A stretch of 64,000 nt of DNA from a virus (Duplodnaviria; Caudoviricetes): positions 143,752 to 207,751 of the IMG/VR virus record IMGVR_UViG_3300033068_001989, one strand, 5' to 3'. The notes beneath the pieces were generated by a model, which was not told the origin of the DNA, did no database searches, and worked only from the letters and a program-made list of their open reading frames with translations. A program made the position numbers and the translations under genes. Positions 34,838 through 49,343 of this stretch are shown piece after piece (within the stretch, counting starts at the first letter, position 1; each line of letters begins with the position of its first letter).

Positions 34838-34929
34838 TGGTACAGATGGCGGGAATCGAACCCGCGTTTGATGCTATCTCAACAACCGCTACGAGTATAG
34901 AAGATATAAGCTTCCATCGGTACATCTGC
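34838..34929 (-). ncRNA. tRNA-like RNA with a rearranged core
   Basis: Acceptor GCAGATG/CATCTGT+ACCA and canonical T arm, but no canonical D arm. Confidence 0.65.
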
Positions 34930-38409: not shown

Positions 38410-39990
38410 TTAGATAACAATAGCTTCGATTTCTCTTAAAATCGCTTTTGGATCGATCTCAGCTTTTTTGATCATCTCGTAGATATCAGCAGAGTAACCA
38501 AAAAGTTGAACTAATTTGTTACCTGGTTTGAACATGGTTGTACCATATCCTTGAATATCAACAGTGTAGATGAAAGGTTCGCCATGTGCAGATTTGTAGG
38601 ATTGGAAAGAACTGTTTGTAACGATTCTATCACCACCTTGTAAATCTGATATGATGAAGATACGATCATATTTACCGCTTTTTTGTAAAGTTGAGAAGAT
38701 TGAGCCGAAGTCAGTACCATGACCAACTCTACCTTGCAAACTTAAACATGTATTTTTGATCGTATTGATGCTATCGCCAGGATTGTATCTGATACCTTCT
38801 GTTGTTGTCGCAAATTGGTATAAATCTGCACCGATACCTTTTGCTAACGTTGCTCCAATAAGAGCAGCTTTATCAATACAATGTTTGTTTATAGCTTTAC
38901 CATTCATGGTAACTCCATGTCCCATTCCGTGCATAGATCCAGATGTATCAATAACAACCGCTGTTCTGCCATGTGAGAATAATTCGAGCAAGTTTGGTAT
39001 TGCTAATTCGTAAGCTCTATTCAAAGCAGTAACGAATGGTCTAGACGCAGAAGCACTAGTTTCTTGTAAAAGAATCTCCAAAGCAATATCTATTTGGTGA
39101 GGAAAGACCAAAGATTTTCTGATCAATTTCTCATCGATTAAAAGCTCACACGCACCACTAACTAATTCAGAATTTGAACTTGTGTTGATGATGTTTCTTA
39201 AATTACGAAGCAATGCCAAGTAACCAATTTTTCTAGTTTTAATCAATTCAGCATAGTTGCTTTCTTTAGCTTGTGTCAATTCAACCTCTGCTTGGGCTTT
39301 AGTGATTTCACCGGATTTAACTTTTGCAGCAACTTCCTGTCCTGATTTTGTGTTTTTGTCCTCGACAGTGTTGAATTGTTTTAACTTACCAGTCATAAGT
39401 TCTTTGAAAACCCCCTCCATTTGTGGTGTTGTTGGTTTTGGACGAACCAAGTTAACAACATCAACAAGTGAAACTGCTTTCCCTTTACCTTGATATTTAG
39501 CTAATTCGTATGCATCTGCTGATTCTAAAGCTGCTTTAAAGCCTTTCTTCATTGAGTTAGGTAATGGTTTACCAGGATTGAAGTGTTGGTAAGCTGCGAT
39601 AATCTCCAATACGTCATCTAAACGGTATATAATACCACCAGTTTTAGCATTCTTATCTCTTTTTGAGAAGAATCTTCTACCTATAGCTGATCCGGATAAA
39701 TGTTTAACTAATGATACAGATCCGAAATGTGTTACTGATCTTTGACCAACAACAGTTCTCGCGTATACAAGAGCTTTAGCAACGAATTCGATATCTTTCT
39801 TGGACAATTCGTCGATAAGTTGAACAAATCTGTTCTCTCTATCTGATAATTTTTCATAGTATGAATTATCCAATCCTGTGGTAAGAATAGCAATTAATTC
39901 TAATTTTGGATCATACTTCACACCGGTACCACCTTGATGGTTTGTAACTGTCTCAACAGTTCTTTTTACTTTTTGATTGTAACGTGACAT
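38410..39990 (-). CDS. TROVE-domain Ro60/Rsr-like RNA-binding protein
   Basis: N-terminal TNHQGG, YELAKY, ALLRNLRN, C-terminal vWA domain with DTSGSM, GTDF, IISDLQ. Confidence 0.9.
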   Translation of the reverse strand: MSRYNQKVKRTVETVTNHQGGTGVKYDPKLELIAILTTGLDNSYYEKLSDRENRFVQLIDELSKKDIEFVAKALVYARTVVGQRSVTHFGSVSLVKHLSGSAIGRRFFSKRDKNAKTGGIIYRLDDVLEIIAAYQHFNPGKPLPNSMKKGFKAALESADAYELAKYQGKGKAVSLVDVVNLVRPKPTTPQMEGVFKELMTGKLKQFNTVEDKNTKSGQEVAAKVKSGEITKAQAEVELTQAKESNYAELIKTRKIGYLALLRNLRNIINTSSNSELVSGACELLIDEKLIRKSLVFPHQIDIALEILLQETSASASRPFVTALNRAYELAIPNLLELFSHGRTAVVIDTSGSMHGMGHGVTMNGKAINKHCIDKAALIGATLAKGIGADLYQFATTTEGIRYNPGDSINTIKNTCLSLQGRVGHGTDFGSIFSTLQKSGKYDRIFIISDLQGGDRIVTNSSFQSYKSAHGEPFIYTVDIQGYGTTMFKPGNKLVQLFGYSADIYEMIKKAEIDPKAILREIEAIVI

Positions 39991-41571: not shown

Positions 41572-41731
41572 TTATAAGGGAATGATGTAAATAGCGTTTT
41601 TTCTAACGTGCTCTACCAACTGAGCTATTCCCCCCAAATTTTTAATTTGTTTAGTGGGGGAAGATGGATTCGAACCACCGACACCGTGCTTTCAATGCAT
41701 ACGAAGTAACTATTTTACTGACCACTTATAA
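41572..41731 (-). ncRNA. Y-RNA-like element 4 (YrlA-type permuted order T - acceptor loop - D)
   Basis: AGTGGTCA..TAGTTACTTCG, GGTGGTTCGAATCCATC, TTCCCCC/GGGGGAA, TAGCTCAGTTGGTAGAGC, CATTCCCT. Confidence 0.78.
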
Positions 41732-42692: not shown

Positions 42693-43154
42693 TTAATTTG
42701 CAATTTTTTCAATAATAATTTCCTTAACCTTAACTGGACTCGCCATACCTGGAAACTTTTTATTAAAAGCACCGATAACTTTACCTGTTAAAACCTGTGC
42801 ATTTAATCCAAGACCATCCATTTCTGAAAGTAGTTCCATAACAGCGGATGTTATTTCTGAATCCTCCATTTGTTTAGGAAGATAAGATTCAATCGGTTTC
42901 AACTCAGCTGTTTCTTGTTCTACAAGATCCATTCTTCCGGCCTTTGTGAATTCCTCTACTGATTGTTTTCTTTGTTTGATTGTGCTTATAACAATCTTTA
43001 AAACATCAGCATCACTAAGCTCTGTTCCAGCTGGACCAGCTTTCTCAGCTTCTAGTATTTTGGACTTCAGACCACTTAAAGCACTTTTTGCTACTGTGTC
43101 TTTTGATTTGAATGCTGTAATATAATCAGCATTGATTTTCTCCTTTAGTGTCAT
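42693..43154 (-). CDS. GatB/YqeY domain protein
   Basis: MTLKEKINADYITAFKSKD..IKQRKQSVEEF..GRMDL..ESYLPKQ; start corrected to avoid the tRNA-like element. Confidence 0.88.
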   Translation of the reverse strand: MTLKEKINADYITAFKSKDTVAKSALSGLKSKILEAEKAGPAGTELSDADVLKIVISTIKQRKQSVEEFTKAGRMDLVEQETAELKPIESYLPKQMEDSEITSAVMELLSEMDGLGLNAQVLTGKVIGAFNKKFPGMASPVKVKEIIIEKIAN

Positions 43155-43169
43155 GTTTTCAATTTTTAG

Positions 43170-43238
43170 TGGAATATTGGGACTCGAACCCTGCCTCCCA
43201 CTGTTTAGTGGTTGCACATCCGCTTGTGCTTTTATCCC
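43170..43238 (-). ncRNA. degenerate tRNA-like element
   Basis: Acceptor, D and T arms present; anticodon loop TAAACA is non-canonical. Confidence 0.55.
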
Positions 43239-43692: not shown

Positions 43693-43713
43693 TTCGAAAT
43701 GTTTAAAAATTAG

Positions 43714-43803
43714 TGATCAGAACAGGAATCGAACCTGTGCTCTGCCGAAGATACCCCGATTTCTCGGATCGACGACCAAATACTCCCACTATATCATCTG
43801 ATC
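43714..43803 (-). ncRNA. tRNA-like RNA with an enlarged anticodon arm
   Basis: GATCAGA/TCTGATC acceptor, T arm ACAGGTTCGATTCCTGT, extra hairpin in place of the anticodon loop. Confidence 0.6.
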
Positions 43804-44191: not shown

Positions 44192-44752
44192 CTATTTTAT
44201 TTTCTTATTTTTTGGAGCTTCCACTTTGGATGAGAATATCTCTTTTACACTTCCGTCATGATAGAATATTCTAGCATCAGGATAGGTACATCCATATTGA
44301 TCAGCCATTACCTGTGCATAATCTTCTATGGTATTAAGCTTAATTAATCCTTCGATTATTTTTGATCCGTATTTTTCTCCTATCTCTGGGATTTTGATCC
44401 ATTCCATGTCAGAGTATCTTTCAAGTAATACCTTCAATTCATCTTCAGCACTTAAACCATATCCACTAATCCATCTTTCAACCGGATATCTACCATCTTT
44501 TTCTTGAGTCATTGAAGTTATATCTATGGAATGAGATCCATACCAACGATCACCACAACATTCACAATCCATGCCCTCATCAACACCATTCCAATAGCAT
44601 CCGAGATCTTCAGCGATAGAATCTGCTTCAGCTGAGCTCCTTGCTTCTATGAATAATCTGTGACATAATTTATCATCTGTCACAAAAGAACCTCCTGAGT
44701 TGTTTTGTGAGATTTCATAAAATTTTAAGCTACCGTCTTCTTTTCTTTTCAT
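44192..44752 (-). CDS. hypothetical protein with a CECCGDRW motif
   Basis: QNNSGG and CECCGDRW motifs. Confidence 0.75.
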   Translation of the reverse strand: MKRKEDGSLKFYEISQNNSGGSFVTDDKLCHRLFIEARSSAEADSIAEDLGCYWNGVDEGMDCECCGDRWYGSHSIDITSMTQEKDGRYPVERWISGYGLSAEDELKVLLERYSDMEWIKIPEIGEKYGSKIIEGLIKLNTIEDYAQVMADQYGCTYPDARIFYHDGSVKEIFSSKVEAPKNKKIK

Positions 44753-44762
44753 TTTTATGTTT

Positions 44763-44993
44763 TTAGAAATAGATCCATCCTGCACATCTCTTTGGATATT
44801 TTGATGAGAAATCTATGAAATCTGGATCCTCACCTCTGATGAATTTATGAATTGATACATTTTCTTTTGTCCTGTTTGCTTTATTAAATTGTCTAACAAA
44901 ATCACTGGGAACGTTGCACCAGTAGTTATATCTACCCGGTGTGTGTCTTCTTCTTTGTGCTTCGGTCCAAGACCATCTCTTTTTTGTTTTCAT
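44763..44993 (-). CDS. small basic protein preceded by uORF MKKKFDMY*
   Basis: 76-aa Arg/Lys/Trp-rich ORF; uORF at 45014-45040. Confidence 0.7.
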   Translation of the reverse strand: MKTKKRWSWTEAQRRRHTPGRYNYWCNVPSDFVRQFNKANRTKENVSIHKFIRGEDPDFIDFSSKYPKRCAGWIYF

Positions 44994-45053
44994 TTTGTAT
45001 TAGGTTATTTTACCTAATACATGTCGAATTTCTTTTTCATATTTAATTATTTG

Positions 45054-45126
45054 TGGAGCTGATGGGATTCGAACCCACATCCTCCTCCGTGCAAGGGAGG
45101 CGCTCAGCCAGTTGAGCTACAGCCCC
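45054..45126 (-). tRNA. tRNA-Ala(TGC)
   Basis: Cloverleaf, G3:U70. Confidence 0.95.
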
Positions 45127-45134
45127 AAATTTTG

Positions 45135-45208
45135 TAGCGAGAGTGGGTTTCGAACCCACGACCTCCGGGTTATGATTCCAGCGCTCTGACCATCTGAGCT
45201 ATCTCGCC
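45135..45208 (-). tRNA. tRNA-Met(CAT), elongator
   Basis: Cloverleaf. Confidence 0.9.
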
Positions 45209-45248
45209 AATTCATAGACCTTAATAGAACCTATGAAAACAATCATTT

Positions 45249-45482
45249 TTACTGGTGATGTTTGACATATCTGCCAAACCTATCAACTCTAACCTCCATC
45301 TTAGTGAGGTTAAAATTCCAGTTTTGAAAAACACCCAAGCCAGATCTTTGTCTTGCTTGTTTAATAGCAGATTGCTCTGCCTTTTCGCGACCTTCTTCCG
45401 TAGTCTCTACGAAAAAAGTGGGAGCCTGAACACCAGTCTTACTGGTAGGAACTACTCTCCAAATTCTCAAATTTTGAGTCAT
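45249..45482 (-). CDS. small basic protein preceded by uORF MKTIIDST*
   Basis: 77-aa ORF; uORF at 45505-45531. Confidence 0.7.
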   Translation of the reverse strand: MTQNLRIWRVVPTSKTGVQAPTFFVETTEEGREKAEQSAIKQARQRSGLGVFQNWNFNLTKMEVRVDRFGRYVKHHQ

Positions 45483-45554
45483 AATATTTAGCTAATAGCT
45501 AAAACTATGTTGAGTCGATGATTGTTTTCATGTTCTTAATTTATTTTAATTTTG

Positions 45555-45627
45555 AGCAGAAGACGGGACTCGAACCCGCAACAACCTGCTTGGAAGGCAG
45601 GAGCTCTACCAATTGAGCTACTTCTGC
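45555..45627 (-). tRNA. tRNA-Gly(TCC)
   Basis: Cloverleaf. Confidence 0.95.
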
Positions 45628-45671
45628 ATGGAGCCGGCACGATGATTCAATCGTGGATCTTCCGGAATGTG

Positions 45672-45744
45672 AGCGATAGACCGGGGTCGAACCGGCGACC
45701 TTTGCCTTGGCAAGGCAACGCTCTACCAACTGAGCTACTATCGC
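45672..45744 (-). tRNA. tRNA-Gly(GCC)
   Basis: Cloverleaf. Confidence 0.95.
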
Positions 45745-45835
45745 ATGATCGGGTAGCGTCGAACTAAGTTTAATGTTAGTCCTATACCCGCTGGTTACAT
45801 TTCCACGAAGGAAAGAGGCTTTACCAGGCACCCTG

Positions 45836-45907
45836 AGGGCAGAGTGGGATTCGAACCCACGACCAGTTGATTAACAGTCAACTGCTCTACCGCTGAGCTA
45901 TCCACCC
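45836..45907 (-). tRNA. tRNA-Asn(GTT), atypical acceptor
   Basis: Cloverleaf, CTGTTAA loop, GGG start and U73. Confidence 0.85.
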
Positions 45908-45962
45908 TTTTTAATCTTAGTTATTGCTAATGGATAAGTTTCCTTATACTATTGGATATTTG

Positions 45963-46035
45963 TGGGACCGGGCGGGATCGAACCGCCATCATCGGATTTT
46001 CAGTCCGCTGCATAGACCAACTTTGCTACAGTCCC
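45963..46035 (-). tRNA. tRNA-Phe(GAA)
   Basis: Cloverleaf. Confidence 0.92.
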
Positions 46036-46048
46036 TTTTTTATTTTTG

Positions 46049-46122
46049 CTCTTCTGACTGGATTCGAACCAGCAACCCCAGGTTTAACAAACCTTCGCTC
46101 TGACCGTTGGAGCTACAGAAGA
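46049..46122 (-). tRNA. tRNA-Asn(GTT)
   Basis: Cloverleaf, G73. Confidence 0.9.
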
Positions 46123-46128
46123 ATGTTG

Positions 46129-46239
46129 TGGAGTAGCTGGAATTGAACCACGCTATCTGGGATAAGTACTAATAGTCTTACTCTTGCTATCTAGAATCTG
46201 AAGCAGACCCTATCAGACATTTCCCAGCCCTTTTACTCC
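46129..46239 (-). ncRNA. tRNA-like RNA: acceptor and T arm around a branched insert
   Basis: GGAGTA/TACTCC ends, TGGTTCAATTCCA T arm, CTGGGA/TCCCAG inner helix. Confidence 0.6.
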
Positions 46240-46244
46240 GTTTG

Positions 46245-46326
46245 TGCCAGCAGAGGGACTCGAACCCCCGAACCCTTAAGGGAACAGATTTACAGTCTGC
46301 AGTAATTGCCGCTATACGATACTGGC
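46245..46326 (-). tRNA. tRNA-Tyr(GTA)
   Basis: Cloverleaf with variable arm. Confidence 0.92.
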
Positions 46327-46331
46327 TTTTG

Positions 46332-46405
46332 TGACCCCGATGGGACTCGAACCCATGACTCCCTCATTAAAAGTGAGGTGCTCTAGCCAGCTGAGCTACG
46401 AGGTC
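46332..46405 (-). tRNA. tRNA-Lys(TTT)
   Basis: Cloverleaf. Confidence 0.95.
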
Positions 46406-46579
46406 ATTATAATAAAGTTGTTTTTGTTTAATAAACCTGCCTGGTTTATTATGATTTTTCAACTTTAGTGTATTGATTTAGTTTCCGTTATGCCAAAGAT
46501 CATATTTTTTTAACATTGCAAATATATGAAATGCTTTCGAATTAAAAAAATATTTTTTTAATTATTTTTTTAATTTTTG

Positions 46580-46650
46580 TTGGGATACCAGGATTCGAAC
46601 CTGGAATAACTGGACCAAAACCAGTTGTGTTACCGTTACACCATATCCCA
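46580..46650 (-). tRNA. tRNA-Gln(TTG)
   Basis: Cloverleaf. Confidence 0.95.
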
Positions 46651-46659
46651 TTAAATTTG

Positions 46660-46730
46660 CACGGACTGGAGGATTCGAACCTTCATCGTCGGTTTTGGAG
46701 ACCGGTATGCTACCATTGCACCAAGCCCGT
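46660..46730 (-). tRNA. tRNA-Trp(CCA)
   Basis: Cloverleaf. Confidence 0.93.
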
Positions 46731-46734
46731 GTGT

Positions 46735-46962
46735 TTATCTGGTTGCTTTATGAAACTCGTTATTATCTAAAGCCTTCCTGATGTACCTCATAAAGAAGAT
46801 GGCATTATCTTCTGCTAACAATGTTGCTTCTCCTATATCATTCAATCTAACAGGAAATGTGTGATCCGAACCATCAACGAAAACGTTGTAATAAGCGATG
46901 TCATTCTTTAGATGTGAAAATCTAACTTTGTTGTCTTTTACGATTTCTTTTATTGTTGCCAT
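46735..46962 (-). CDS. hypothetical protein
   Basis: 75-aa ORF between tRNA-Pro and tRNA-Trp. Confidence 0.75.
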   Translation of the reverse strand: MATIKEIVKDNKVRFSHLKNDIAYYNVFVDGSDHTFPVRLNDIGEATLLAEDNAIFFMRYIRKALDNNEFHKATR

Positions 46963-46978
46963 TTTGTTTATTTATTTG

Positions 46979-47054
46979 TCGGGATACAGAGACTCGAACT
47001 CTGATGATGTCCTGCTCCCAAAGCAGGCGACTTAGCCAATTAGTCCACATCCCG
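46979..47054 (-). tRNA. tRNA-Pro(TGG)
   Basis: Cloverleaf. Confidence 0.92.
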
Positions 47055-47073
47055 TTAATTTTAATTTCAGTCC

Positions 47074-47271
47074 AAAAAAAAACTCCAGATCTTTTAAGAT
47101 CTGGAGTAAAAATATTTAATGCTTATTTGACTAGTTCTTACATTAAATTATATCGTGACCTCCAGATCCCTTGCTGTACCCATTATACCATTTGGCAATG
47201 CCCACCTGATTAAAGGGTGCAACGCTCTGCGGCATAAACGGTTTTACATTATTTCGGAAAGTTGTTTTCAT
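47074..47271 (-). promoter_or_regulatory. leader-peptide attenuator 2 (42-aa uORF 47143-47271, terminator 47074-47107)
   Basis: uORF MKTTFRNNVKPFMPQSVAPFNQVGIAKWYNGYSKGSGGHDII*; its GATCTGGAG is complementary to CTCCAGATC in the terminator 5' arm. Confidence 0.68.
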
Positions 47272-47369
47272 TGTTTTTTAAATTATAGATTTATATATCT
47301 AATTGATTTTAATATTTTATGCAAATTTATGGAAAAGTTTCGAATAAAAAAAATTATTTTTGATTTTTT

Positions 47370-47615
47370 TTAAATATTTTTAATTATTTCATCTAAACCA
47401 ATCTCTTTTACTGAGTCGAAATCGGAAGCATCATATGGTGTATCCTCCAGAATATAATATTTTTCCATGAAATATGGTCCTGATCCGTATCCTATTGCAA
47501 GTGCCTTCATTTCCTTTCCCCCGTATGCTACCAAAACAGTTCTTAGCGACGTGTTAGTATTTTTATTCATTACTTCCTCTAGCAAAGTAGAATTAAATTC
47601 CTGTATATGTTTCAT
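47370..47615 (-). CDS. hypothetical protein
   Basis: MKHIQEFN..LLEE N-terminus. Confidence 0.7.
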   Translation of the reverse strand: MKHIQEFNSTLLEEVMNKNTNTSLRTVLVAYGGKEMKALAIGYGSGPYFMEKYYILEDTPYDASDFDSVKEIGLDEIIKNI

Positions 47616-47624
47616 ATTTTTATT

Positions 47625-48317
47625 TTATTTTTTGCTCCATTCCTTCTTAGCATCCTTAGCTCCTGCTTTAGATACCCCACATTTGGTTGATTTAAAACTT
47701 GGTCCTTGTAAACCGTCTAATGGTTGATCTTCTCCTTTTGCTCTTTCCTCCTGCCATGCATAATACTCCTCAACAGATTTAAAACCAAGTCTTTTTGCTC
47801 TCTCCTCAACATCCTTTCTCATTTTTGCAACCTTGATCTCCTTTTTCATATTTGCATAATCCCTGGCTGATATTCTTTTATGTGATTCCAATTCCCCTTT
47901 GGTTACATTGGTCCCATTTTCTACTATTTTAATAGTAACCGTTGTTTGGTATCTACCATCTTCGAGCTTTAATGTTATTTCGTCGACAACTTCATATGAA
48001 ATATTGGATTCTGGTGGTACACATTGGCTGATATTTACTATTGCGTGTGATAGAGCTATCCTTTTTGATTGTGATTCGTCAGATGATATGCATACGCCTG
48101 TTCCTATGCTTTCCTCCTCGTCATCTCCAGCATTTTTATATTTTCCTGCTATCTCATTTTTAATGTTAGCACTTATGTCTGGTGATGCTAATAATGAAGC
48201 TATTATTGCAGTTGTGGCAAATCCTGATTTTGCTCTTGATATTAAGGAATTAAGATCCTCGTTTATTGGTTCGTCTTTTAAAGAATTAAATTCCTCGAAT
48301 AGTTGTAAATGTTTCAT
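47625..48317 (-). CDS. hypothetical protein, putative virion-internal
   Basis: MKHLQLFEEF N-terminus; GATATATA immediately upstream. Confidence 0.75.
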   Translation of the reverse strand: MKHLQLFEEFNSLKDEPINEDLNSLISRAKSGFATTAIIASLLASPDISANIKNEIAGKYKNAGDDEEESIGTGVCISSDESQSKRIALSHAIVNISQCVPPESNISYEVVDEITLKLEDGRYQTTVTIKIVENGTNVTKGELESHKRISARDYANMKKEIKVAKMRKDVEERAKRLGFKSVEEYYAWQEERAKGEDQPLDGLQGPSFKSTKCGVSKAGAKDAKKEWSKK

Positions 48318-48346
48318 CCCTTATATATCCGGGATGTATTAGATTT

Positions 48347-48769
48347 TTATCTATTGGAATGGTTCCACTTGGCTCTTATGCAAGTCTGTGGTTTTCTTCT
48401 TTCCTTCAAATACATATTAATATATCCCATCATGTTACCAGATCCTATTGGATTAGCGCTATGTACGTAACATTGTGGGATCTCAAGATTATTTTCTCTT
48501 GCTAAATTAACTAACCATTTAACAACATCCATCCCAGTTTTTTCTGTTATAGAATCGTAGCATATGGTGTAATTGAACCTTGTATTTTTAAAGAAGTGAT
48601 CTATTGCGGAAGGACCAAGATCATGATCCAATGATATCAATTCGACGTTATTTAGACCTGTATTAAGGACTAATTTAACAAATTCATCATAATCTCTTAC
48701 CGTAACCCATTCTTTCCCTAGCGGGTGCTCTAATGGTGTTCTAGTGTCGTCTAGATAGATTGATATCAT
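48347..48769 (-). CDS. cyclic-phosphate-processing receiver-domain protein
   Basis: IYLDDTRTP, ISLDHDLG, TGMDVVKWL, VHSANPIG. Confidence 0.8.
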   Translation of the reverse strand: MISIYLDDTRTPLEHPLGKEWVTVRDYDEFVKLVLNTGLNNVELISLDHDLGPSAIDHFFKNTRFNYTICYDSITEKTGMDVVKWLVNLARENNLEIPQCYVHSANPIGSGNMMGYINMYLKERRKPQTCIRAKWNHSNR

Positions 48770-48782
48770 TTAATTTTTTTTG

Positions 48783-48864
48783 TGATCTGAAAGAGATTCG
48801 AACTCTCACGCTTATTAGCACCGCCCCCTCAAGACGGCGTGTCTACCAATTCCACCACCAGACC
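48783..48864 (-). tRNA. tRNA-Leu(GAG)
   Basis: Cloverleaf with variable arm. Confidence 0.93.
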
Positions 48865-48874
48865 TTATTATTTG

Positions 48875-48948
48875 TACCCGAGGAGGGACTCGAACCCTCA
48901 AAATCTAGATCCTAAGTCTAGCGCGTCTGCCAATTTCGCCACCCGGGC
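48875..48948 (-). tRNA. tRNA-Leu(TAG) lacking the long variable arm
   Basis: Leu-type D arm, CTTAGGA loop, only about 4 nt of variable region. Confidence 0.85.
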
Positions 48949-48955
48949 AGGGTTA

Positions 48956-49204
48956 CTATTTATACTGTGTAATCCTATTATGTTTCCAGGTTCTGTAAGA
49001 TCTAGCATCAAATGTAGAAATTAATTTACCATTACCGTGTCTACCCCTTCCTCTCATAGACATAGGTGAACAATCATAATAGAAGCTTCCACTCCTTTTG
49101 CAACATATAAAGCAGTAATCATATTCATGCTTTAGATATGTTAATTTATACTCCCTTGGAGTTGAACATCCGTTGAGCTTTGCTCTGTTTCTGTTTCTTG
49201 ACAT
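48956..49204 (-). CDS. small basic Cys-containing protein preceded by uORF MKKKFDMH*
   Basis: CFICC, C-terminal RSYRTWKHNRITQYK; uORF at 49227-49253. Confidence 0.75.
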   Translation of the reverse strand: MSRNRNRAKLNGCSTPREYKLTYLKHEYDYCFICCKRSGSFYYDCSPMSMRGRGRHGNGKLISTFDARSYRTWKHNRITQYK

Positions 49205-49269
49205 TTTGAATTAGGTTATATTAAACCTAATGCATATCGAATTTTTTTTTCATTTTTTTTAGTTATTTG

Positions 49270-49343
49270 TGACCCCGACAGGATTCGAACCTGTGACCTA
49301 CTCATTAGAAGTGAGTTGCTCTATCCAGCTGAGCTACGGGGCC
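49270..49343 (-). tRNA. tRNA-Arg(TCT)
   Basis: Cloverleaf. Confidence 0.95.

Follow-up and report, generated by a model that had tools for sequence, protein, structure and literature searches.

In the final 64 kb of a viral genome record from IMG/VR, three genes for small basic proteins, set within an array of transfer RNA (tRNA) genes, are each preceded by an upstream open reading frame (uORF) of eight codons, whose amber stop codon lies in a hairpin placed over or directly before the start of the main gene. We propose, with a probability of roughly 0.65, that each of these modules is a translation-operated on-switch, in which translation of the uORF unmasks the start codon of the small basic protein gene. 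The record (IMGVR_UViG_3300033068_001989) is linear, 207,751 bp long, with 33.8% G+C and a CheckV completeness of 73%; the 64,000-nucleotide (nt) stretch analysed here is called the window, and its positions are used throughout. Two of the leaders share a consensus peptide and are termed class A, and the leader of the second module is termed class B. The parts of the three modules are as follows.

45053-45126, minus strand: tRNA-Ala(TGC), found by ARAGORN and scoring 67.7 bits against Rfam tRNA; its 3' end is 12 nt before the uORF1 AUG
45014-45040, minus strand: uORF1 (class A), MKKKFDMY, with TAG at 45016-45014; leader orthologues occur in related loci L001-L003, L229 and L230
44996-45021, minus strand: hairpin 1, a 10-bp stem UGUAUUAGGU / ACCUAAUACA with a 6-nt loop
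44763-44993, minus strand: protein 1, 76 amino acids (aa), isoelectric point (pI) 10.1; a small orphan family of 7 clusters at 67% identity or more
45554-45627, minus strand: tRNA-Gly(TCC), found by ARAGORN; its 3' end is 22 nt before the uORF2 AUG
45505-45531, minus strand: uORF2 (class B), MKTIIDST, with TAG at 45507-45505; the uORF is kept in 74 related loci
45480-45509, minus strand: hairpin 2, CAUAG plus stem paired with the complementary stem plus UUAUG
45249-45482, minus strand: protein 2, 77 aa, pI 10.6; a well conserved family of 89 clusters
49269-49343, minus strand: tRNA-Arg(TCT), found by ARAGORN; its 3' end is 15 nt before the uORF3 AUG
49227-49253, minus strand: uORF3 (class A), MKKKFDMH, with TAG at 49229-49227
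49207-49234, minus strand: hairpin 3, core AUUAGGUU / AACCUAAU with an extended base
48956-49204, minus strand: protein 3, 82 aa, pI 10.0; a family of 55-90-aa basic proteins ending R-x-Y-R-T-W-K-H-N-R-K-T-Q-W-K

The uORFs, hairpins and basic proteins of 76, 77 and 82 aa lie where the original prediction, made from the letters of the window, had placed them, and all three uORFs have exactly eight codons, Asp at position 6 and a TAG stop, as it had said. The stop-proximal hairpins also fold as described, but are longer than first noted. Hairpin 1 (-11.9 kcal/mol, z-score -5.0) holds codon 8 and the stop of uORF1 and ends 2 nt before the main AUG; a compensatory variant, GCAUUAGUU / AACUAAUGC, occurs in L229. 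In hairpin 2 (-8.9 kcal/mol, z -3.7) the main AUG itself (45482-45480) forms base pairs with the stop-codon U and with the two preceding bases, which end the last sense codon. Hairpin 3 (-8.5 kcal/mol, z -4.1) includes the stop of uORF3, again ends 2 nt before the main AUG, and has variant stems in L082-L085; the next gene, tRNA-Leu, begins 7 nt past the stop of protein 3. The pattern ATGAAA-N9-GAY-N6-TAG occurs three times in the 207,751-bp record, and these are the three uORFs. The leaders of uORF1 and uORF3 are identical at 45 of 52 positions, though proteins 1 and 3 are unrelated, and these two uORFs have the most stable stop-proximal hairpins among 67 mini-ORF candidates genome-wide. The three modules thus exceed chance.

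More than a hundred uncultured phages share the arrangement, and class-A leaders recur in many other phage contigs. The exact 28-nt motif was found in four other IMG/VR contigs, before orthologues of proteins 1 and 3, and a looser pattern gave 68 matches in 65 IMG/VR stretches, of which all 68 end in a stop codon and nearly all are followed by a hairpin and then by a 57-82-aa basic protein with the tail of the protein-3 family. As a control, the same 27-nt pattern was run against 596 Gb of bacterial genomes, where 45 matches were obtained and 17 had TGG in place of the stop; most of these are chance matches, and about five are real modules, probably phage contigs within metagenomic bins. To avoid circularity, 80 class-A loci were fetched by the C-terminal motif of the protein alone, disregarding the leader, and the uORF was present at 75 of them. 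A still looser pattern returned 55 good modules, comprising 47 before protein-3-like genes, two before protein 1 and six before other small proteins. The protein-3 family itself numbers 200 cluster representatives (E ≤ 1e-3) among 1.84 billion proteins, and the fetched DNA holds at least 154 distinct modules.

Among 61 distinct class-A leaders, 52 have exactly eight codons, with the consensus MKKx[F]Dxx, and the class-A residue, stop and hairpin counts given here refer to these 52. Met1 and Lys2 are universal, Lys3 is kept in 88% (AAA 31, AAG 15), position 4 is free, position 5 is mostly Phe, and positions 7 and 8 vary along with the stem. Asp6 is found in 51 of 52 leaders, encoded by GAC in 31 and GAT in 20. 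Retention of Asp6 through pairing of GAY with the main ORF was considered and rejected, being possible only where that ORF starts AUGUC (16/52). The leader persists in homologues whose proteins share only 32-40% identity, the class-A leader peptide is more conserved than the proteins it would control, and the separate small family of protein 1 also retains it, with compensatory changes in the stem. Class-A leaders end in TAG (34), TGA (11) or TAA (7). The stop is mostly followed by GGU, giving UAGGU, UGAGGU or UAAGGU (L088-L228; window positions 45016-45011 and 49229-49224), strings that look like the 3' portion of a Shine-Dalgarno site, though these genomes otherwise avoid such motifs; this may reflect just the need of the stem for G-C pairs. 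The same architecture, with the stop in a hairpin and a masked AUG, stands before other basic proteins of 93-112 aa (L299, L278, L347 and L091) with the leaders MKRKGCVF, MKTRKESVF, MKYSVF and MEMKKKFDLL, so that gene families beyond the window's three may also use the design.

Relatives of protein 2, whose leaders form class B, were found at 75 IMG/VR loci (70-100% identity), and a uORF of 8-10 codons is present in all 74 that are not cut by a contig end. The peptides of different subfamilies share little (MKTIIDST, MKAIEDSS, MKNNQPNST, MRSIPSSPM and others), most having Pro at positions similar to that of Asp6, and within subfamilies there are synonymous changes at Pro, Thr, Arg and Asp codons. 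The helix is anchored on the main AUG, whose A is paired with the stop-codon U and whose U and G are paired with the two closing bases of the last sense codon; the G of UAG forms a G.U pair with position -2. Across the set, 266 of 297 cells (90%) are paired in this register, against 31-41% when the partner is slid, and positions +3 to +9 covary. The main AUG and the stop are each paired in 25 of 25 leaders. In an ungapped alignment of nine sequences, 99.1% of cells are paired and both partners have changed at four pairs; covariation scores 0.463, whereas shuffled alignments give 0.205 and none of 500 reaches the observed value, and slid registers give 31-40%. Comparison of L007 and L008 with the window illustrates the same point, as the gene is 94% identical and the leader only 65-67%, with the fold kept by a replaced stem. 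RNAalifold predicted no pairs on a MAFFT alignment of class-B hairpins, because loops of unequal length misalign the arms. Class-B stops are TAG in 24 of 25.

Class-A hairpins have a mean energy of -10.3 kcal/mol, with z below -2 in 50 of 52, and the stop codon is paired in 51 of 52. Their 5' arm begins in codon 7; the 3' arm either stops 0-3 nt short of the main AUG or runs into it, and the spacer from stop to main AUG is 11-31 nt. There are 25 different arm sequences, and in module hairpins at large both loop and stem sequences vary while the pairing alone is conserved. In 22 of 27 modules with a tRNA immediately upstream, 12-16 nt separate the tRNA 3' end from the uORF AUG; position -3 of the uORF AUG is A in 84%. 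A tRNA begins within 20 nt past the main stop in 28 of 61 cases, and tRNA genes occur within about 1.5 kb at 74 of 75 class-B loci and 76 of 80 class-A loci. The unit is thus a tRNA-punctuated mini-cistron. Between tRNA and hairpin lies a single-stranded A/U-rich stretch of about 33-37 nt, centred on the uORF AUG and about one ribosome footprint wide; a landing pad of this width would account for uORFs of 8-10 codons and no shorter. A role of the hairpins as terminators was rejected, as they are without a U tract and the next letters are AAAUG or similar, and a terminator scan gave only 49455-49429 and 47107-47082. A permissive Rfam cmscan of positions 30000-52000 returned tRNAs and chance matches, none on the three leaders.

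In the genome as a whole, a Shine-Dalgarno-like motif precedes 6 of 224 genes, as compared with 12% of random positions, and the regions upstream of ORFs are A-rich, with A at -3 in 59%. The sequence TAnnTTTG, which we take to be the -7 promoter element of Bacteroidota, is found in several upstream regions of the record. In Flavobacterium johnsoniae, mRNA structure and A at -3 tune initiation, and extra AUGs near starts are counterselected (PMC6847099).

Because the phage is without Shine-Dalgarno sites, an unstructured A-rich start region would be needed for initiation, and a hairpin over that region should therefore block it unless a ribosome translating the uORF opens the hairpin. In the proposed mechanism, the hairpin would lock the start region (in class B the AUG itself) and bar direct initiation on the main AUG, and ribosomes would load instead on the uORF AUG in the A/U-rich landing pad, bounded on its 5' side by the tRNA end 12-16 nt upstream and on its 3' side by the hairpin from codon 7. 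Translation of the 8-10 codons would drive the ribosome into the 5' arm and melt the stem; with the stop codon in the A site, the whole 5' arm would lie within the mRNA channel of the ribosome, so that the 3' arm is released together with the main AUG, which lies 11-31 nt further on. The main ORF could then be started either by the ribosome that has just terminated, through reinitiation, or by a new 30S subunit if the spacer leaves room for it. Output would be expected to rise with the dwell time of the ribosome at the 3' end of the uORF, and Asp6 in class A, Pro in class B and the avoidance of UAA may be features that lengthen this dwell, in which case the switch would be sensitive to slowed elongation or termination. 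The anatomy, conservation, covariation and coding signature are observed here; every kinetic step, and the signal that is sensed, we infer.

A translational switch, as the original prediction had proposed, is strongly supported by comparative anatomy, in that frame, length, Asp6 and a covarying hairpin that masks the main start codon are all kept. Its suggestion that homologues be searched for an upstream uORF was followed, and conservation, whose failure would have counted against the idea, extends to 75 of 80 class-A loci and all 74 testable class-B loci. Amino-acid conservation with synonymous change, together with fixed frame and length, is a strong coding signature of the uORFs, and predicted folds and covariation argue for sequestration of the start region by a stem-loop. 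Several points weigh on the other side. Translation of the uORFs is predicted only from their evolutionary signature, and the Bacteroidota-type host is suggested solely by start-site and promoter features. The hairpins are moderate (-8 to -13 kcal/mol) and might breathe sufficiently to let some ribosomes initiate directly. Class-B peptides are poorly conserved across subfamilies, and a specific effect of the nascent peptide is therefore not general; moreover, ribosome destabilisation is known from runs of acidic residues, beside which a single Asp is far weaker. Finally, class A could avoid UAA on thermodynamic grounds alone, since UAG and UGA each contribute a G that forms a G-C pair in an AT-rich stem.

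The proteins downstream give few indications of function. Proteins 1-3 are small and basic, and profile comparison finds them mutually unrelated, in agreement with the initial impression. Neither Pfam nor PHROGs holds a family for the three proteins or for 43 family members, and profile searches against PDB sequences gave no match. An ESM Atlas feature search yielded nothing but unnamed viral clusters scoring below 0.8. No match to protein 2 or 3 was obtained by tblastn in 50,697 GenBank phage records, and a DNA search with the region found tRNA matches only. The confident AF2 model of protein 2 (predicted local distance difference test score, pLDDT, 89) has the order strand-strand-helix-strand and no Foldseek match at E ≤ 0.001. 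In a VIA wide search its best Z scores were 6.6 (PaaB) and 6.5 (PurS), with eukaryotic and archaeal large-subunit ribosomal proteins at about 5; for this predicted fold such scores are in the range common for unrelated folds and would support no functional conclusion. The model of protein 3 (pLDDT 58.7) is too poor for a fold search. The suggestion that these are ribosome-binding or rescue factors thus found no support in Pfam, PHROGs or the PDB, nor in a convincing fold match, and constant residence in tRNA arrays is the sole clue, one that hints at translation.

The stop codons of the leaders differ from those of other genes. TAA predominates as had been claimed, ending 172 of 224 ORFs in the genome (77%), with TAG in 38 (17%) and TGA in 14; in the ORFs neighbouring the modules TAA makes up 66-82% and UAG 10-23%. 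In the leaders UAA falls to 13% in class A and 4% in class B, so that UAA is clearly avoided and UAG enriched. UAA differs from the other stops in being recognised by both release factors. In class B the G of UAG contributes no more than a wobble where UAA would make a better pair, and the retention of UAG there is unexplained unless termination kinetics matter.

These data allow the on-switch to be weighed against other explanations. One that is possible, though we consider it improbable, is constitutive translational coupling with no sensing, in which the modules would do no more than tie translation of the main ORF to ribosomes loaded at the 5' landing pad, setting a fixed low expression on tRNA-punctuated mini-mRNAs, and both Asp6 and the stop bias would be by-products. 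The stop-to-AUG spacing of 11-31 nt suits reinitiation by a terminating ribosome, the shortest spacers leave no room for a second 30S while a ribosome stands at the stop, footprint geometry alone accounts for the fixed uORF length, and class-B peptides vary freely between subfamilies. However, coupling of this kind leaves unexplained the invariance of Asp6 through synonymous codon change, the class-B retention of UAG where UAA would both pair better and fit the mutational bias, and the upkeep of so elaborate a device before at least three unrelated gene families. It is very unlikely that the element works as RNA only, with an incidental uORF and a hairpin that directs the processing or stability of a tRNA-mRNA precursor or serves as its protein-bound operator (the basic protein might, for instance, regulate itself there, as the MS2 coat protein does at its operator). 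The hairpin does contain or abut the start codon, as known phage translational operators do, the basic proteins could bind RNA, and the modules are flanked by tRNAs requiring excision. Yet the variable loops and stems offer no surface for sequence-specific recognition, three unrelated proteins would each have to recognise such variable hairpins, and the lack of a U tract speaks against terminators; furthermore, the start, frame and length of the uORF, and K2, K3 and D6, are kept with wobble variation, none of which an untranslated element needs.

The remaining alternatives concern the amber codon. According to the original prediction, the switch would sense RF1-dependent termination at UAG, so that limiting RF1 or damaged ribosomes would induce proteins that bind or rescue ribosomes. 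The enrichment on which this turns stands, with UAG in 24 of 25 class-B and 34 of 52 class-A leaders against 10-23% in neighbouring genes; in class B, where the G makes only a G.U pair, UAG is not due to stem stability, and the modules lie in tRNA arrays next to the RNA-metabolism genes TROVE, YqeY and cREC. RF1 specificity, however, is not a general principle, because class A also uses UGA (11/52) and UAA (7/52), 18 leaders in all, and RF1-specific sensing is thus supported only in part. RF-1 and PTH2 domains were not found in the 73%-complete phage record, and no ribosomal or rescue factor was detectably similar to the downstream proteins, fold scores being at best Z 5-6.6, a range common among unrelated folds; we thus hold the RF1 version to be unlikely. 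Gating by a suppressor tRNA of the phage, with read-through of UAG carrying ribosomes to a downstream stall site, was tried and rejected as scarcely credible. It would fit a UAG stop within a tRNA array, but none of the 34 tRNAs of the 73%-complete record has a CUA, UUA or UCA anticodon, only three of 2,256 tRNAs in 374 fetched loci are of suppressor type, and in all three uORFs the next in-frame stop comes 1-2 codons past UAG, with no Pro-rich stall motif. Two module-bearing contigs do have a suppressor-type tRNA nearby, L110 (IMGVR_UViG_3300049811_000196) with a CUA tRNA and a uORF stop of UGA, and L312/L225 (3300017917_004653) with a UUA tRNA and a uORF stop of UAG; the mismatch of tRNA and stop in these two is anecdotal.

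A broader extension of the on-switch is that MKKxxDxx and class-B leaders might be phage-wide sensors of translation stress in tRNA arrays, inducing small basic proteins that act on ribosomes or tRNAs. This idea is tentative, and we regard it as doubtful. Host defences or the infection itself would slow decoding or termination, so that ribosomes linger at the end of the mini-gene; candidate causes would be release-factor limitation, cleavage of Lys or Asp/His/Tyr/Asn tRNAs by an anticodon nuclease, and ribosome damage.

The wider region is rich in tRNA and RNA-related genes. All 34 tRNA genes of the record fall inside the window and on the minus strand (ARAGORN), and between them lie small ORFs and genes of RNA metabolism (TROVE/Ro60-like, YqeY-like, cREC receiver, DUF7296 and RNase-H-like). 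The TROVE/Ro60-like protein (38410-39990, minus strand; Pfam E 3.6e-10) has near it a sub-threshold Rfam match to YrlA, a Y-RNA-like RNA (31.8 bits, 41604-41687, minus strand), which suggests an RNA quality-control module within the tRNA region. Also interleaved with the tRNAs, all on the minus strand, are cREC_REC, a cyclic-phosphate-processing receiver (48347-48769), the YqeY-like gene (42693-43217) and DUF7296 (44192-44752), the last of which follows protein 1 in relatives L229 and L230 as well. At 43713-43803 (minus strand) is a 91-nt tRNA-like gene to which ARAGORN assigns a two-base "anticodon" (tc) and Rfam a tRNA score of 39.4 bits, and which may have an intron or an unusual anticodon loop. 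A partial match to the tmRNA model at 34838-34889 (minus strand; 27 bits, under the gathering score), between tRNA-Leu and tRNA-His, is probably a tRNA-like fragment. A 42-codon ORF at 47143-47271 (minus strand) is followed by the strong intrinsic terminator at 47107-47082 (minus strand) just before tRNA-Pro, and this is a device distinct from the uORF and hairpin modules. Outside the window, at C1:68381-68416 (minus strand), the start codon of a 320-aa gene lies under a perfect 11-bp hairpin, AUAAUCUAUA / UAUAGAUUAU, with overlapping mini-ORFs that end in TAA; it is a possible separate case of start-codon masking.

Small unannotated genes in phage tRNA arrays are usually ignored, and a conserved control device is common to three or more unrelated families of them; with no entry in Rfam or Pfam, these genes are at present invisible to annotation. 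The device would show how translation can be gated without Shine-Dalgarno sites, by a footprint-wide landing pad and a helix pairing the stop with the next start region, and, at about 50 nt, it could serve as a compact natural model of how Bacteroidota-type ribosomes reinitiate and how uORF sensing works on them. Should the switch answer to tRNA damage or to slow termination, phage tRNA arrays would be linked to an inducible response against host attacks on translation, and the small basic proteins would be candidate new factors modulating translation. If the stress-sensor idea is true, the modules would represent a new sensory leader peptide together with new phage-encoded translation factors.

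The principle, that translation of a short uORF opens a start-masking stem-loop, is already known. Termination-reinitiation coupling is classical for overlapping or closely spaced cistrons of bacteria and RNA phages, in which a structured downstream start stays silent until a ribosome terminates a few to some tens of nucleotides upstream. In the phage modules, by contrast, the upstream cistron is a dedicated mini-gene of 8-10 codons with a conserved peptide, and its stop lies within the inhibitory helix. The inducible resistance genes cat, cmlA and erm, which are controlled by translation attenuation, also have a leader ORF (about nine codons in cat and cmlA) followed by a stem-loop that masks the start and is opened by a drug-stalled ribosome, as in ermC and cat-86. 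Leaders of cat begin MVKTD, MKKSE or MKKAD and stall ribosomes at or next to Asp, which resembles MKKxxD. However, the phage genes downstream are not resistance genes, having no Pfam or PHROG family, the phage stem masks the AUG and not a Shine-Dalgarno site, with the stop in its 5' arm, and the context of Ala, Ser or Thr before Asp that is typical of chloramphenicol stalling is not conserved, since positions 4-5 of the phage leaders vary freely.

Together with the cat-type leaders, two eight-codon leaders of enterobacteria are the nearest known counterparts. In E. coli, toiL, the uORF of topAI-yjhQ, pairs with the ribosome-binding site, and stalled ribosomes open the hairpin and induce the genes (PMC12121999); toiL responds to several translation stresses (PMC12121999). 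It lies 139 nt upstream and also acts via Rho termination, whereas in the phage 11-31 nt separate stop and main AUG, and the stem takes in no more of the uORF than its stop and the last two to three codons. In Salmonella, the 8-aa mgtQ, between mgtC and mgtB, frees the sequestered start region of mgtB, and its acidic residues Asp2 and Glu5 are required and are proposed to destabilise the ribosome (PMC8092293). The likeness thus extends to the eight codons, to translation as the means by which the following gene's start region escapes an inhibitory stem-loop, and to acidic residues, required in mgtQ and represented by an invariant Asp in phage class A. However, mgtQ works with alternative stem-loops (1:2, 2:3 and 3:4) and a Shine-Dalgarno site, whereas the phage has a single hairpin pairing the stop with the AUG region in a genome without such sites; the phage Asp is at position 6 and not 2, the peptides show no similarity, and the phage context is a tRNA array. 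No published description of the modules was found, though absence from the searched literature is not proof. New are the setting in phage tRNA arrays, the lack of a Shine-Dalgarno element, the direct pairing of the stop with the next start region, the one-footprint landing pad, the octapeptide with its invariant Asp6, and the breadth of at least 154 distinct modules.

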